Below the pieces are notes generated by a model. The model saw only the letters and a program-made list of their open reading frames with translations. It ran no database searches and was not told the origin of the DNA. Below are positions 101-8,503 of a stretch of 8,503 bases of DNA, in pieces. Made by a program: the position numbers and the translations under genes. Source of the DNA: a virus (Monodnaviria > Loebvirae > Hofneiviricota > Faserviricetes > Tubulavirales > Inoviridae); the IMG/VR virus record IMGVR_UViG_2698536505_000016; one strand, given 5' to 3'. Numbering within the stretch: the stretch's first letter is position 1; every line of letters starts with the position of its first letter.

Positions 101-580
101 TTATATAGAAATGAAAAACTCCTCTTCATTTCTTCTTTTATAATTGTCATCCCATATGAGTTTTATTCGGTATTTAGTTTTACTTCCAAAGCTTATTCCC
201 GCTAAAATTTCAATTCCATGTTGCGGGTGTAATACCTCATATGGAAATTTATCTTCTACATCATGCATTGAAAGATATTCATTTCCATCGTTATCAGGGA
301 AATGAATCTCTATATTTTTAGCCTCAACTCTCCCTCTATTAAATATCTTGAGCCTATAGTTGTTTTTGGCTATTTTTACGAGGCGAGCACCAAGCTCAGC
401 TTTCATCTCATTAATTGCTGACTTTGTTTCTTTTTCCAGAAGCAACTTACGTAACCTGTCTTGCTCATCCTTTATAACCTTTTGTTCTCTATCGCTTTTT
501 CTCGATTTCATTTCTGACGATATGATAGTGTAAATCGATACTACAAGCGCAGCTAAAGCGATGGCATCACTTGTTGTCAT
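101..580 (-). CDS. Hypothetical membrane-anchored protein, 159 aa: N-terminal TM helix, charged coiled-coil-like segment, C-terminal domain of unknown function
   Basis: ATG at 580-578 overlaps the upstream stop as TAATG; AAGGA Shine-Dalgarno 7 nt upstream; hydrophobic N-terminus AIALAALVVSIYTIISS followed by a K/E/R-rich segment; AT-rich coding sequence by eye. Confidence 0.65.
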   Translation of the reverse strand: MTTSDAIALAALVVSIYTIISSEMKSRKSDREQKVIKDEQDRLRKLLLEKETKSAINEMKAELGARLVKIAKNNYRLKIFNRGRVEAKNIEIHFPDNDGNEYLSMHDVEDKFPYEVLHPQHGIEILAGISFGSKTKYRIKLIWDDNYKRRNEEEFFISI

Positions 581-855
581 TATTTGATCCTTATATTCTT
601 ACTTCCCTTAAATGCCTTTTTGAGCATGTCGTTAAACTGTTTTTGAATGTCTTTTGTTAACTCTTCTTTTATTTCATCTACATGAGCGTCAATACTCACC
701 CCGTTTTCTTGGATTAACTCATCATTAGTAAATTCTTTCCCGCAGCCTACACATCTAACGACTTCAGACTCTTCCTCGTGTTCCATCTCTGTATTTCCGC
801 ACACAGGACATAGCAGGGTAATGTTTCTATTGTATTTCTCAGGATTCAGTTTCAT
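580..855 (-). CDS. Small zinc-ribbon protein, 91 aa, with a CPVCG...CVGCG motif resembling YgiT/MqsA-type zinc fingers
   Basis: ATG at 855-853 with GAGAGGA Shine-Dalgarno 5 nt upstream; two CxxC pairs 19 residues apart; stop overlaps the start of the downstream gene. Confidence 0.65.
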   Translation of the reverse strand: MKLNPEKYNRNITLLCPVCGNTEMEHEEESEVVRCVGCGKEFTNDELIQENGVSIDAHVDEIKEELTKDIQKQFNDMLKKAFKGSKNIRIK

Positions 856-883: not shown

Positions 884-1306
884 TTACCAGTAATATGAAT
901 TTCTTCTGTGCCACCAATAAAGCAGGCCATATCCGACAATAAGAATCCCGAAGAACATCAGAGACATTCCCCAGCCAGTTCCATACCACGAAACCATATC
1001 ATCGAAAACCAGCCCACCCGTTTCACGAACTCCGGCAGCTTCCTTAAGAATTGGCTTGAATACCGGAATCAGAAGGGCGATCGCCAGTGGAGCACCCCAG
1101 CGAATAAGGCCAGTTTCCATTTTGATCCCGAAAAAGATCCCCGCACCGACAACAAGCAGCCAGACTATCAGGCCAGGCGCAGTTTCCAGTGCTGTTTGCC
1201 ATTCAACATCGAAAGTTTTCATTAGCCAGGCAACAACTGCCAGACAGAAAGCAAATACGCCTACAACAACCAGTTCAACGCCGCTTGTTTCGTTATTTCT
1301 ACTCAT
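884..1306 (-). CDS. Hypothetical integral membrane protein, about 140 aa, four predicted TM helices
   Basis: Internal ATG at 1306-1304 with AAGGA about 8 nt upstream; four hydrophobic stretches; the longer reading from 1453 would run through a hairpin and overlap the upstream gene. Confidence 0.55.
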   Translation of the reverse strand: MSRNNETSGVELVVVGVFAFCLAVVAWLMKTFDVEWQTALETAPGLIVWLLVVGAGIFFGIKMETGLIRWGAPLAIALLIPVFKPILKEAAGVRETGGLVFDDMVSWYGTGWGMSLMFFGILIVGYGLLYWWHRRNSYYW

Positions 1307-1339
1307 CCTTTTGATCCTTTGTTGCTGTTCAAAATCCGC

Positions 1340-1377
1340 ACAATAAAGAACGTGCAGTGTAGGTAATACTGCACGTT
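1340..1377 (-). terminator. Hairpin plus T-rich tract between the regulator gene and the membrane-protein gene; terminator or attenuator
   Basis: Perfect 8-bp inverted repeat CGTGCAGT (1351-1358) / ACTGCACG (1368-1375) with 9-nt loop; followed on the minus strand by TTCTTTATTG. Confidence 0.4.
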
Positions 1378-1394
1378 TGTACCATTCGTGGTAC

Positions 1395-1577
1395 TTAATC
1401 CTTTTGTTTGGCAGACATGAGATCTTCTGCTGCATCTTTAGAGTAGTTATCAATCAGATAACCTAAAATCTCTGTCCATGTAATTGTTTTTCCTAGTTTT
1501 ACACTGGCATTTATAGCCAGTCGTTCTAGTTTCATTTTTCTTTCTTCCGTCACGTTATAAGTCGTGCGCTTTGCCAT
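1395..1577 (-). CDS. Putative small DNA-binding regulator, 60 aa, ribbon-helix-helix-like (candidate phage repressor)
   Basis: ATG at 1577; N-terminal short beta-strand-like segment (RTTYNVT) followed by two predicted helices, the pattern of Arc/MetJ/CopG regulators; transcribed divergently from gII. Confidence 0.45.
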   Translation of the reverse strand: MAKRTTYNVTEERKMKLERLAINASVKLGKTITWTEILGYLIDNYSKDAAEDLMSAKQKD

Positions 1578-1746
1578 TTTTTACGCTCGTTCAATGCAAT
1601 ATTTGAAGTGAGTATACATGCTCGTGAACTCATACCATCCAAGCCTCTTGAACTCACTAGCTCACTGGTGTAATGTTAAAACACTAATGAACTACTGAAC
1701 TCATGTGTTAGTAAGTCGTCATTTTTGCAATTTTGAGGATTTATTC
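1578..1746. promoter_or_regulatory. Divergent control region between the regulator gene and gII; contains direct repeats (candidate operators or iterons) and candidate promoters
   Basis: Three 13-nt direct repeats, CTCGTGAACTCAT (1621-1633), CTCTTGAACTCAC (1645-1657), CTACTGAACTCAT (1692-1704), plus partial TGAACTAC (1688-1695); plus-strand TTGAAC (1648-1653), 17-nt spacer, TAATGT (1671-1676); minus-strand TATACT -10-like hexamer (complement of 1611-1616). Confidence 0.4.
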
Positions 1747-2799
1747 GTGATCGATTGGCTTACCGGGATTTTCCCTTGCACACACAAACCGCTTCCGGCG
1801 GGGAGTGTTGTCAGCGTTGATGCTGACGGTGCAATTGAGTGGGAAACCGTTAAGCGACTGACTGTTCGCGGTTCGCATGAAGCAACGATGAAAGTACGAT
1901 CGATAGGATCTAATGGCGAAGGTAAAGCGACACATTTGTACATTGATGGTAATCCTTCCAAGTTTCTGCAGGGGCATTCTGTTGTTGGGTCGGATGATAT
2001 ACAAGGGCTCATGTTGACGGTCTATGCCAGGATTTTATCCTTATTGAATATTCCTCATGATTTAGCGTCTTATAAAGCCGTTATGGCAGGTCAGTATAAA
2101 ATTTCACGTGTTGACATTAATTACATGTATTCATTATCTACGCTGGAAAATGTCAGATCATGGCTTTATGCCGCCGAATTTAAAGCTAAAACACGCCATG
2201 GTCGCGCATGTGGGAAAGGCGGTACAGTTTATTTAGGTAAAAACTCCCGTCGATGGAGTCTGAAATTTTATTCAAAATATGATGAACACGTTTCTGGTAA
2301 AAAAGGGCACCAGATAGCCGAAGAGTTTGTACGAGCCGGGTTACTGGACTGGACGAAAGATAAATTACGTATTGAATTAACATTAAGAACAACTGAGCTT
2401 ATTGATTTAAATTTAACGCTTGGCGCTAACTGGAATATGAAAACACCACGTCAATTATTCTCTGAATATGTAGGGAGAATAGAAATGAATCAGAATGCTA
2501 TTTTAAGTGATGAAAAAATAACGAAACTGCCAAGAAAAATACAGTCAACTTATTTACTTTGGAAACAAGGGGCTAACATGAAAGAAATGTTACCTCATAA
2601 CACTTTTTATCGCCATAGAAGAGAATTGCTTTCGTTCGGTATCGATATTAATTTCTATTGTGATTCACCAGACTCTAATAACGTTGTTCCGCTAATAAGA
2701 ACGCTGGAAGCCAAGCCAGCGGAAATCCCCTTATGGATTTATGAGAAAGGTTTTATTTTCGATTACAACCGTATTTCGCACGCCAGTAGCTGGCATTAA
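1747..2799 (+). CDS. gII: Replication initiation protein pII (rolling-circle nickase), about 350 aa
   Basis: GTG start at 1747 preceded by GAGGA (1735-1739); product then begins MIDWLTGIFP, like M13 pII (MIDMLVLRLPF); internal motifs GNPSKFLQGHSVVG and NNVVPL resemble M13 pII. The ORF track start at 1705 is also GTG, with no Shine-Dalgarno. Confidence 0.85.
   Translation: MIDWLTGIFPCTHKPLPAGSVVSVDADGAIEWETVKRLTVRGSHEATMKVRSIGSNGEGKATHLYIDGNPSKFLQGHSVVGSDDIQGLMLTVYARILSLLNIPHDLASYKAVMAGQYKISRVDINYMYSLSTLENVRSWLYAAEFKAKTRHGRACGKGGTVYLGKNSRRWSLKFYSKYDEHVSGKKGHQIAEEFVRAGLLDWTKDKLRIELTLRTTELIDLNLTLGANWNMKTPRQLFSEYVGRIEMNQNAILSDEKITKLPRKIQSTYLLWKQGANMKEMLPHNTFYRHRRELLSFGIDINFYCDSPDSNNVVPLIRTLEAKPAEIPLWIYEKGFIFDYNRISHASSWH
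2485..2799 (+). CDS. gX: Candidate gene X product: in-frame internal start within gII giving its C-terminal 104 aa
   Basis: ATG at 2485 preceded by AGGGAG (2472-2477) at 7-nt spacing; Ff phages make pX from an internal start in gII of similar size (111 aa in M13). Confidence 0.4.
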   Translation: MNQNAILSDEKITKLPRKIQSTYLLWKQGANMKEMLPHNTFYRHRRELLSFGIDINFYCDSPDSNNVVPLIRTLEAKPAEIPLWIYEKGFIFDYNRISHASSWH

Positions 2800-2810
2800 A
2801 GGAAAGTAAT

Positions 2811-3128
2811 ATGTCTAATTATGGTCTTTTCGTTAAGGGTAAAATGTTGGGAGCCCGCCAACGTAATAAAGTTAATGGTCAGGGCTATTATAATGAAATT
2901 GGTATTGGCCTTGAAATACCTGATGGTTTTGGTGGTACAAAGCAGGATCAAATTATTATTCGAGTTTCTCAGGCTCTCGTTAACGCAGGTCTAATGAACC
3001 AGGCGAATGCTTTCATTGGGAAATTAGTTCAAATTCCTGTCTATGTCCGTGCGTGGTCAATGGAGGGTAGGGAAGGTGTAACTTATAATGTTGCTTCCGA
3101 TGGTGGCATCGCAGAGATCAAAGGTTAA
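2811..3128 (+). CDS. Gene-V-position protein, 105 aa; putative ssDNA-binding protein by synteny, divergent from Ff gVp
   Basis: ATG at 2811 with GGAAAG Shine-Dalgarno directly after the gII stop; sits between gII and gVII; little obvious similarity to M13 gVp by eye. Confidence 0.5.
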   Translation: MSNYGLFVKGKMLGARQRNKVNGQGYYNEIGIGLEIPDGFGGTKQDQIIIRVSQALVNAGLMNQANAFIGKLVQIPVYVRAWSMEGREGVTYNVASDGGIAEIKG

Positions 3129-3130
3129 AT

Positions 3131-3217
3131 ATGGACGATGTTATTCAAATTTTGATAGCGTCTGGCATCGTTATTTCTTTTGGCCTCGGCGCGATTACTG
3201 CGGGGGTCTTTCGTTAA
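3131..3217 (+). CDS. gVII: Minor coat protein pVII, 28 aa, hydrophobic
   Basis: ATG at 3131 with AAGG upstream; product MDDVIQILIASGIVISFGLGAITAGVFR resembles M13 pVII in size and C-terminus; stop overlaps the next start as TAATG. Confidence 0.55.
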   Translation: MDDVIQILIASGIVISFGLGAITAGVFR

Positions 3218-3312
3218 TGTATATCGTTTATTTCTTCGGGGCTTATACCTTTGGTTTTGCCCTTTTCTATGCGGTCGGTTCATTTAAATCATTTTCTGAC
3301 CGATTAATGTAA
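3217..3312 (+). CDS. gIX: Minor coat protein pIX, 31 aa, hydrophobic
   Basis: ATG at 3217 overlapping the gVII stop; product MYIVYFFGAYTFGFALFYAVGSFKSFSDRLM; size and position match Ff pIX. Confidence 0.55.
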   Translation: MYIVYFFGAYTFGFALFYAVGSFKSFSDRLM

Positions 3313-3331: not shown

Positions 3332-3574
3332 ATGAAAATTCTGTCTACTGTTAAATATAAAATTGCTCTGGCTTCAACTGCGCTTTTTATTTCTGCAAGT
3401 TCTTTTGCGGCTGAAGGCGCTACAGGTGGTACTGATTATGCAGGTCAGGCAATGGATGCTTTGTTGACTCAGGCAAATGATCTCATTGGTAAAGTATGGC
3501 CTGTTGTTGTTGCTGTGGTTGGCGCTGGGCTTGCCATTCGTATTTTCAAAAAATTCTCTTCAAAAGCGGTTTGA
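3332..3574 (+). CDS. gVIII: Major coat protein pVIII precursor, 80 aa, signal peptide plus about 54-aa mature protein
   Basis: GGAG Shine-Dalgarno 8 nt upstream; likely cleavage at SFA/AEG; mature C-terminus ...[13 protein letters not shown] closely matches IKe/M13 coat protein (...LFKKF(S/T)SKA) from memory. Confidence 0.9.
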
Positions 3575-3608: not shown

Positions 3609-3620
3609 AAGCGGGTTACT

Positions 3621-4931
3621 ATGAGAAGGAAAATATTAATTCTTTCCGCTGTCCTCATTTCTCCTTTTTCACATGCTGAGTCATGGGAAAGCATTACTAA
3701 ATCCACTTATCAAAGTTCTGCCTACGCTGAAAGTAAGCAAATAACCAATCAGGATGGCTCTAAGATAACGGTTTACTATATTGATGCTGCTATGCAGGCC
3801 TCCGCTTGTCAGGGTGCTAAATCCAGTGCTCAGAGTGTATTTACTCGGATTAAACCAACTTATGAGGGTATCTGGCCTGATTCTGAATTCCGTCTTGTTT
3901 TTACTGGCGATTGTACTTACAGCGATTCACCAGGGCAGAAGGATAAATATTGGTCTTTAACGGCTTATATTGTTGGTAATATTCAGCGTTCTGTTCCTGA
4001 TGAAAAACCTACTGACCCGACACCAGAAGAAATTTGTGAAGCGAAGCCGCCAGAAGAAGGTGTATTTAATAATGTTGATTCATATGATGGTGGTCGCTAT
4101 ATCTACTATAACGGCTGTGAATATGAGGCTACTGGTGTCATTGTTTGTCAGGGTGATGGTACTGTTTGCGCTGCAACATGGAAGCCTACAGGTGCTGTAG
4201 CTGACCCCTCTGATAAACCCTCACCCCCCCAAAATGGTGGTGGTGAGTCCGGCGGTGGTGAGTCCAGCGGTGGTGAGTCCGGTGGTGGTGAGTCCGGTGG
4301 TGGTGAGTCCGGTGGTGGTGAGTCCGGCGGTGGTGAGTCCGGTGGTGGTGAGTCCGGCGGTGGTGAGTCCGGTGGCGGTAGTTCTGGCGGTGGCTCTAGT
4401 GGTTCCAGTCTTTCTAAAGGTGATATTCAGTCTGCGATCGAAGGTGCTTCACCCAAAATAGCCAGCGATATTCATGATAAATTAACGGAGAAAGACACTT
4501 CATCAGATGATAAAAAAAATGCCGATGAACAAACCAGGAATAATATAAATCGTCTTGACGATTCCATTAACAATCTTACGCGGGGGGCTGGCCGTTTTGC
4601 TGACCCTTCAGGTGGTGATTCTCGTTATGGAAAGGGCGACTCTGAATTAGATGGCGCTTCTACTTTAGCTGATTCTGAATTGGGAATTGAAAAGGATTCT
4701 CACGGTGCTTTATGGGAAGCATTTTTAAATAAAGGTGCTATGCTGCCTAATTTACCCAATGGTAACGGCTGCTCTGATTTTATTATTTTTCCCGGAGAGA
4801 TTTATCAGATTGATATTGGTTGCGATAAATTACTGACTATTAAAGATGTTCTTTCATGGGTTTTTTATTGCCTTACGTTCTGGTATGTCTTTACTTCTTT
4901 AACTTCATTGCTTCGCAAAGGGGGTGAGTGA
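3621..4931 (+). CDS. gIII: Adsorption/minor coat protein pIII, 436 aa: signal peptide, Cys-containing N-terminal domains, (GGGES)n linker, C-terminal membrane anchor
   Basis: ATG at 3621 after the terminator (track start 3477 overlaps gVIII); C-terminus ...[36 protein letters not shown] resembles the M13 pIII anchor; glycine-rich linker typical of pIII. Confidence 0.85.
4236..4400 (+). repeat. Tandem 15-bp repeat array inside gIII, about 9 near-perfect and 2 degenerate units, encoding (GGGES)n
   Basis: GG(T/C)GGTGGTGAGTCC repeated head-to-tail from 4236 to 4370, in frame with gIII, then two degenerate units to 4400. Confidence 0.9.
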
Positions 4932-7709: not shown

Positions 7710-8018
7710 ATGGATTCTTATGGGATTTTATCTGCTCTGGCAGAACGAACGATTACAGCGGAAGAAGCAAAAACAATGACACTTGCAGCCAGAAGTTCTT
7801 CGGCTCAGGTAAATGAAGCATCACTTGCTCTGTTACTGATTGATAATACTCTGGATGCGATCAAAGCAGCTGCCAGTGAAGGGAAAGGATACACTTTACT
7901 TCCTTCTTATGAGATTTCTGTAAAAGCCATTGATTTAGCAGAAGAATTTTTAAGGAAACAATGCGGCTATGTTATTGATAACCAGAATGGCGTAAGGACG
8001 GTCTATTGGTTTATATGA
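7710..8018 (+). CDS. Hypothetical protein, 102 aa, predicted mostly helical, no recognised motif
   Basis: ATG at 7710 with a weak G-rich Shine-Dalgarno; lies between gIV and the att region where Ff phages have only non-coding sequence. Confidence 0.5.
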   Translation: MDSYGILSALAERTITAEEAKTMTLAARSSSAQVNEASLALLLIDNTLDAIKAAASEGKGYTLLPSYEISVKAIDLAEEFLRKQCGYVIDNQNGVRTVYWFI

Positions 8019-8135: not shown

Positions 8136-8369
8136 ATGCAATTTTTCACATCCAGCGATACTGTAATGTTATGTGCGAAGACCTGCGATCGCTGTGGTCG
8201 CCATGCGAAGACGGTGGTAGATGACATTGAGTTCAATGAGTTTCTGTCTGTTAATCACTTAGCTGGATACGGTTCAATTTTTGGTGACAGTAATCGCTTA
8301 AAACTGGATTTATGCCAACATTGCCTGAAAGACGTCCTGGGCCAGTGGATTACGGTCTGTGACCAATGA
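8136..8369 (+). CDS. Hypothetical small cysteine-rich protein, 77 aa, putative zinc-binding
   Basis: Strong GAGGAG Shine-Dalgarno 5 nt upstream of ATG at 8136; CxxC pairs at residues 17/20 and 61/64; followed by the att hairpin. Confidence 0.55.
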   Translation: MQFFTSSDTVMLCAKTCDRCGRHAKTVVDDIEFNEFLSVNHLAGYGSIFGDSNRLKLDLCQHCLKDVLGQWITVCDQ

Positions 8370-8407
8370 CGGCACCGGTAACGCCAGTTCCCGCCATCCT
8401 TACCATT

Positions 8408-8440
8408 GGTGCGCATAATGTACGACTCGTTATGTTGAAA
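8408..8440 (+). other. dif-like XerC/XerD recombination site, second copy
   Basis: Same sequence as 4-36. Confidence 0.55.
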
Positions 8441-8479
8441 AGGCCGCTGCGAAAATCGAATCCCGCAGCGGCCTCTTTA
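8441..8479 (+). terminator. Same hairpin, second copy, downstream of the 8136-8369 ORF; candidate plus-strand terminator
   Basis: Identical stem-loop followed by TCTTT on the plus strand; located about 70 nt after the stop at 8369. Confidence 0.35.
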
Positions 8480-8503
8480 GCATAACGTCATTGTGCGAAC
8501 CAA

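Follow-up and report, generated by a model that had tools for sequence, protein, structure and literature searches.

A PF17426 Protein With a Predicted SSB-Like OB Fold Occupies the Gene V Slot of a UPΦ-Type Filamentous Prophage of Escherichia coli

The gene V (gV) slot of the prophage considered here raises a simple question: what is the 105-aa protein that sits where M13 and IKe encode gVp, and with which neighbors was it inherited? The window, that is, the whole 8,503-nt stretch of DNA that was analyzed, has gII/gX on one side of the slot and gVII on the other, and an earlier note had placed a 105-aa protein in the slot at 2811-3128; coordinates, length, and slot all proved correct when the ORF and the sequence were read (Table 1). 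In our judgment the protein is quite probably the gV equivalent of a UPΦ-type prophage, a member of Pfam family PF17426 that was inherited together with gII and gX as a replication module and that coats ssDNA by means of an OB fold.

Table 1. Coordinates of the features discussed in the text, counted from the first nucleotide of the window.
Feature	Position	Strand	Description
Gene II, rolling-circle replication initiator	1747..2799	+	350 aa, GTG start; Phage_CRI E=9e-70, G2P_X_C E=2.5e-29; RefSeq 350 aa
Gene X, in-frame internal start in gII	2485..2799	+	104 aa; internal ATG, GGGAG upstream
Module common to the window and YpfΦ/CUS-type prophages	1748..3135	+	80% nt identity to prophage L021 (blastn)
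Shine-Dalgarno-like AGGAAAG of the gV-slot ORF	2800..2806	+	AGGA-to-ATG gap 7 nt; read from the sequence
gV-slot ORF, subject of this study	2811..3128	+	ATG, 105 aa, TAA; PF17426 Putative_G5P; predicted SSB-like OB fold
Gene VII, first of the Lineavirus-like morphogenesis block	3131..3217	+	28 aa; Inovirus_G7P_2 E=2.7e-11
Gene IX	3217..3312	+	31 aa; start overlaps gVII stop (TAATG)
Gene VIII, major coat protein precursor	3332..3574	+	80 aa; Phage_coatGP8 E=3.4e-19
Gene III	3618-4931		long (GGGES)n glycine-rich linker at about 4230-4460
Accessory ORFs, h1/h2 of the UPΦ paper	7710-8018, 8136-8369	+	no family
Accessory reverse ORFs	101-580, 580-855	-	no family

The gV-slot gene is real and strongly constrained. 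Its ATG lies 11 nt past the stop codon of gII (TAA, 2797-2799), the ATG of gVII follows 2 nt beyond its own stop, and the other plus-strand frames across the ORF are interrupted by 4-13 stops. Compared with the copy in prophage L021 (81% identical in nucleotides and 93% in amino acids), 48 of 71 synonymous sites have changed and 10 of 244 non-synonymous sites (dN/dS = 0.024); the exact protein was found in 5527 indexed blocks of public assemblies. That the ORF arose by chance or was mis-called, and has no product, is scarcely credible in view of this constraint, a Pfam match at E=8e-51, relatives that fall into 43 clusters at 50% identity, and the sequence itself, which shows a ribosome site and a gene tightly coupled to both gII and gVII. 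An Rfam search around the gene returned no match, and promoter and terminator scans of the same surroundings were uninformative, promoter-like sites being fewer than in shuffles.

The gV-slot protein belongs to PF17426, the type of gene V product found in I2-2, YpfΦ, and CUS phages, rather than to PF02303. It matched PF17426 in hmmscan at E=8.3e-51 (171.1 bits; cut-off, 25), and the match runs from end to end, with residues 2-104 corresponding to profile positions 1-108 of 108; it also matched phrog_1547 (E=4e-51), and its RefSeq entry, WP_000073833.1, is named "DNA-binding protein." Among deposited phages the best match was the "gene V product" of I2-2 (39-40% aa identity), itself a PF17426 protein, which lies directly after the replication initiator and before the coat genes, the same position that the window protein takes in its own inovirus genome. 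An exhaustive phmmer search over 1.8 billion cluster representatives returned 43 clusters at E<=0.001, most of them of about 100-125 aa, with some shorter fragments and a few repeat proteins that were judged spurious. The matches set aside as spurious were the large proteins P0041, P0047, P0054, and P0065, of which P0041 and P0047, on inspection, proved to be repeat proteins (TPR-like and Ig/cadherin-like) with multiple matches to residues 24-62. PF17426 was passed by all 33 aligned relatives, and the family-conserved G5, G10, G14, and G31, the aromatic residue in the D-G-F-G-G loop, and aromatic 82 are all present in the gV-slot protein, with G10, G14, and G31 invariant among the 33. Since the family is catalogued and the phage group has been described, the protein is to be counted as already known.

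A separate observation concerns the C-terminus. In many distant PF17426 members the sequence closes with a short "…KAA" or "…AA" tail (P0036, P0043, P0050, P0051, P0053, P0057, P0058, P0061, P0062, P0064, and P0068), which the window protein does not have, and a PF02303 (gVp-family) protein, P0078, is also tailed, ending "…QPKAA." A C-terminal tag common to two gV-slot families that are unrelated might act as a degron or as a tip for binding a partner.

Comparison with gVp of Ff and IKe gave no detectable relation in any of four sequence-level tests. With hmmscan, the gV-slot protein had no PF02303 or PF17878 match at E<=1, while the control proteins, gVp of IKe and M13, matched both families (PF02303 at E 2e-23 for IKe and 1e-42 for M13). 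BLASTP against the gV proteins of M13, IKe, and If1 produced no alignment at E<=10 except 6-residue noise. When the profile of the PF17426-type family (a 33-sequence alignment) was aligned by hhalign with an Ff/IKe gVp profile (an 11-sequence alignment), the probability was 1.1%, over 9 aligned columns. A search of the PDB with the family profile retrieved no gVp chain at E<=10, the sole matches being SSB-like PrgE (E=0.085, weak) and an unrelated protease; as a positive control, the gVp profile retrieved 16 distinct gVp sequences from the PDB at about 1e-37. The earlier note had seen little resemblance to M13 gVp by eye, which the searches bear out, and no profile placed the protein in the Ff gVp family. 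Ff gVp is an OB-type barrel, and a true but extremely diverged ortholog of it, descended vertically with its similarity eroded past detection, would agree with the shared slot, the similar size (105 vs. 87-88 aa), and the same general class of OB-type β-barrel, as well as with an adjacent gII that falls in the same Pfam families as Ff gII; we regard such an origin as improbable.

The element that carries the gene is a UPΦ-type inovirus, Lineavirus-like and dif-integrating. The window matches E. coli chromosomes over its full length at 98-99.6% identity, and in E. coli UM146 the element adjoins hipBA and has a perfect 28-bp dif site as its right boundary. The window begins and ends with a perfect 99-nt direct repeat (1-99 and 8405-8503) and is therefore one 8404-bp phage unit plus the repeat. 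Within the repeat lies a dif-like site, GGTGCGCATAA-TGTACGACTCG-TTATGTTGAAA, with a perfect XerC arm, a central region of 11 nt instead of 6, and two differences in the XerD arm; it is followed by a GC-rich hairpin (GGCCGCTGCG…CGCAGCGGCC). The repeat looks like the tandem-copy junction, or attP, of a XerCD-dependent inovirus. Genes are arranged in the order gII/gX, gV slot, gVII, gIX, gVIII, gIII, gVI, gI, and gIV, with two ORFs without family past gIV and four reverse-strand ORFs in the left part. UPΦ phages have been described as relatives of IKe and I2-2 that integrate at dif and carry two extra genes, h1 and h2, along with reverse ORFs near dif (PMC7307601), and PCR primers for UPΦ901 have been published (Shapiro and Putonti, PMC7307601). 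These UPΦ901-specific primers map inside gIII of the window, at 4201-4220 (0 mismatches) and 3751-3770 (2 mismatches), and the gene order, h1/h2 ORFs, reverse ORFs, and dif integration were all found as well; by its primers and its match to the published description, the window is thus of UPΦ type. Identification of the window as CUS-1/YpfΦ itself was rejected on account of its IKe/I2-2-like structural genes and the mapping of the UPΦ901 primers within it; what YpfΦ/CUS-type elements have in common with the window is limited to gII/gV, a single reverse ORF, and the dif-like region.

Some observations on the accessory regions may be recorded here. The 91-aa reverse ORF gave weak zinc-ribbon-like matches (CxxC…CxxC), and its RefSeq name is "ECs_2282 family putative zinc-binding protein." The reverse ORF at 886-1405 (minus strand, within 884-1453) has no Pfam family, and public assemblies call its product at 140 aa; its nucleotide identity to L021 is 96%, far above the 80% of gII/gV, and the elements differ in the ORFs to the left of it. 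Just upstream of gII, a divergent ORF of 60 aa (1395-1577, minus strand) takes the position of an rstR-like repressor and has no Pfam match, and YpfΦ/CUS-type relatives encode a 148-aa HTH_3 protein in its place. In gIII, the length of the linker varies among near-identical prophages, with products of 406-437 aa across loci, and this variation accounts for the difference in length between the window and the UM146 element. The metagenome scaffold ERZ28627254 (L004/L005) holds a tandem duplication of the prophage in another chromosomal neighborhood, where a Fic-domain gene replaces the left-hand reverse ORFs of the window.

The relatives of the replication genes differ from those of the morphogenesis genes. 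The block shared with L021 begins at the second base of gII and extends 7 nt beyond the stop codon of gV. The structural genes of L021, a prophage integrated at dif, are unrelated and encode a 570-aa protein in the gIII slot, a DUF2523 protein, and a 341-aa Zot protein, which makes L021 one of the YpfΦ/CUS type. The structural genes of the window are 65-69% identical to I2-2 in nucleotides; because the block is L021-like and the structural genes are I2-2-like, gII, gX, and gV can be taken as one exchangeable replication module. At the protein level (BLASTP), gII is 57% identical to I2-2, 21% to M13, and 20% to IKe, and gV is 40% identical to I2-2, with no match to M13, IKe, or If1. The divergence from M13 and IKe thus covers gII, gX, and gV together, not gV alone. 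For gene X, phrog_17464 matches residues 261-360 of the long ORF, and the gene is annotated likewise in I2-2, IKe, and M13. Downstream of the slot, aa identities are 70% to IKe and I2-2 for gVII, 57% to IKe and 53% to I2-2 for gIX, 54-60% to IKe and I2-2 for gVIII (60% to IKe), 53% to both for gIII, 52% to IKe for gVI, 65-66% to both for gI, and 72-73% to both for gIV, while identity to M13 among the coat and assembly proteins is 32-54%, with no BLASTP match to M13 for gVII and gIX.

These comparisons indicate that gV was inherited with gII/gX as a replication module, and that recombination has joined this module to different morphogenesis modules. Stassen et al. reportedly came to the same module conclusion for the replication module of I2-2 (1992, J Mol Evol). 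The flanking genes, which the earlier note had called strongly Ff-like, are not so: those downstream are closest to IKe and I2-2, and gII is as distant from M13 as stated above. Its suggestion of a module replacement is supported by the match of the block to YpfΦ/CUS types, with the replaced module including gII/gX and the replacement being already documented. A split of the gII/gV module has been described in UPΦ phages (PMC7307601): in UPΦ901, genes II and V share >85% identity with YpfΦ and <15% similarity with IKe and M13, and the remainder is IKe/I2-2-like. A further comparison concerns prophage L022 of Brenneria alni (1715-3096, aligned with 1747-3128 of the window), where gII is 92% and gV 74.5% identical in nucleotides; both are about 80% identical to L021. 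The difference between gII and gV in L022 suggests, at the level of sequence identity, a further recombination breakpoint between the two genes inside the module.

The fold of the gV-slot protein is predicted to be SSB/PriB-like. The AlphaFold2 model, computed from an alignment of 37 sequences (mean pLDDT 88.6, pTM 0.75), contains strands at 6-19, 26-37, 43-52, 72-84, and 87-94 and helices at 54-58 and 61-67, which together make up a helix-capped OB fold. The best 50 Foldseek matches in the PDB were all bacterial, mitochondrial, or apicoplast SSBs except for one chain of an RNA-editing complex, with E from 3e-5 and TM-scores of 0.41-0.59. In BFVD, many of the top matches are nameless and the best named ones are SSBs of tailed phages; one named match is the SSB of Thermus phage OH3, which we take to be a filamentous phage. 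gVp is absent among the PDB and BFVD matches listed, and the nearest solved structures were not of the gVp type. Conservation across the family was compatible with an ssDNA-binding OB domain: among the 33 relatives, an aromatic residue is present at position 40, in the β2-β3 loop D38-G-F40-G-G42, in 100% and at position 82 in 97%, a basic residue at position 16 in 85%, and K71 itself in 79%; the pI is 9.3 for the gV-slot protein and 8.7-9.4 for most family members, with some acidic. The β2-β3 loop, W82, and the basic residues R16 and K71 are the likely DNA-contacting elements.

By analogy with gVp, we infer that a gVp-type mechanism is the best supported for this small, basic protein with a single predicted OB domain. 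Rolling-circle replication driven by gIIp would make plus-strand ssDNA, which the gV-slot protein would coat cooperatively as it emerges; coating would block conversion of the ssDNA to the double-stranded replicative form, and the coated strand would then be passed to the pI/pIV export machine, where pVIII would displace the protein. ssDNA binding, the oligomeric state, and any gVp-like repression of translation are properties that we infer for the protein, and the ssDNA binding presumed by the PF17426 family name draws its support from the analogy of fold. A literature search found no biochemical study of I2-2 gVp, YPO2275, or any PF17426 member.

The positions of distant relatives bear on this proposal. 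In L013 and L014, family members with 25-35% identity directly follow the Rep gene and precede the coat genes; the Rep family is Rep_trans in L013 and G2P_X_C in L014, and the coat family is Phage_Coat_B in both. L012 has coat genes (Phage_coatGP8) downstream of its family member on a contig too short to reach the Rep gene, and Pseudomonas phage 97-1 has a family member in the same slot. As the slot is kept with different Rep and coat families, it is conserved independently of its neighbors, as expected for a core function in replication or packaging. An OB-fold protein with another job in the replication module, for instance regulating gIIp, acting solely as a translational repressor, or serving as a cofactor of integration, and not a genome-coating SSB, seems to us distinctly unlikely. 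The presumed status of ssDNA binding and the acidic family members would leave room for such a job, and one member has a sub-threshold match to CTX_RstB (E 0.038), RstB being tied to CTXφ integration. However, the 8.4-kb unit encodes no other candidate SSB, conservation of the slot beside unrelated Rep families argues against a Rep-specific accessory, the non-integrating phage I2-2 carries a family member too, and hhalign to CTXφ RstB (PF07459) gave a probability of 0.5%. Coating of ssDNA stays the preferred role for the gV-slot protein.

The oddity of the gV slot has a simple and documented cause, and its significance is mostly one of bookkeeping: the prophage is an I2-2/YpfΦ-type gII/gX/gV module recombined onto an IKe/I2-2-like morphogenesis block. 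PF17426 provides what is presumed to be the ssDNA-coating protein in prophages of medical relevance, namely YpfΦ of Yersinia pestis and CUS and UPΦ of extra-intestinal E. coli. The small addition made by this analysis is the predicted fold, SSB/PriB-like and not gVp-like, which amounts to a concrete and cheaply testable hypothesis. A possible, still tentative, extension is that PF17426 is not a diverged gVp and arose when an OB domain of cellular type (SSB/PriB-like, helix-capped) was recruited independently to the gV slot of inoviruses. If so, inoviruses would have filled the ssDNA-coating role repeatedly with unrelated OB proteins (PF02303, PF17426, DUF1293, RstB, and the If1 type), and the nucleoprotein that I2-2, YpfΦ, and UPΦ phages form before assembly could differ from the Ff gVp-ssDNA rod in stoichiometry and architecture.

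Several known proteins can be set beside the gV-slot protein. VGJφ ORF112 (DUF1293, PF06950), CTXφ RstB, and the ss-DNA binding protein of If1 occupy the gV slot in their own genomes, as the window protein does, and were rejected as its homologs for want of a detectable relationship: hhalign gave a probability of 0.14% for ORF112 and the low value above for RstB, and If1 gV, which is without Pfam family, had no BLASTP similarity to it. Bacterial and mitochondrial SSB and PriB OB domains (E. coli SSB 1KAW/1EYG, Rim1 6CQK, and PriB 2CCZ) are 7-18% identical to it in structural alignments, and the SSB family PF00436 was not matched by the protein at E<=1 or by its 33 relatives at E<=10. The predicted model has a helix between β3 and β4 as in the OB fold of bacterial SSBs; in contrast to these, the protein ends at residue 105 (…IAEIKG) after the OB domain, and the disordered linker and acidic C-terminal tip are missing. 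Ff/IKe gVp (PF02303; PDB 1VQB, 1GVP) takes the same slot and is likewise small, single-domain, and β-rich, and coating of plus-strand ssDNA for export is presumed for both; the gV-slot protein differs in its greater length, in the undetected sequence and profile similarity, and in a model ordered β1-β2-β3-α-β4-β5 with a helical cap whose top structural matches are SSB and PriB. The closest counterparts are within PF17426, a family to which gene V of UPΦ901 and the YPO2275-type protein encoded by YpfΦ/CUS prophages also belong. The gene V product of I2-2 (Lineavirus I22, NP_039617.1) matches the family over its full length like the gV-slot protein, and the copy in L021 is nearer still. As in the window, the gene V products of I2-2, YpfΦ, and UPΦ follow a short (344-350 aa) gII of the Phage_CRI type, and the gV-slot protein, a close variant of RefSeq proteins, shows no substantive difference from them.
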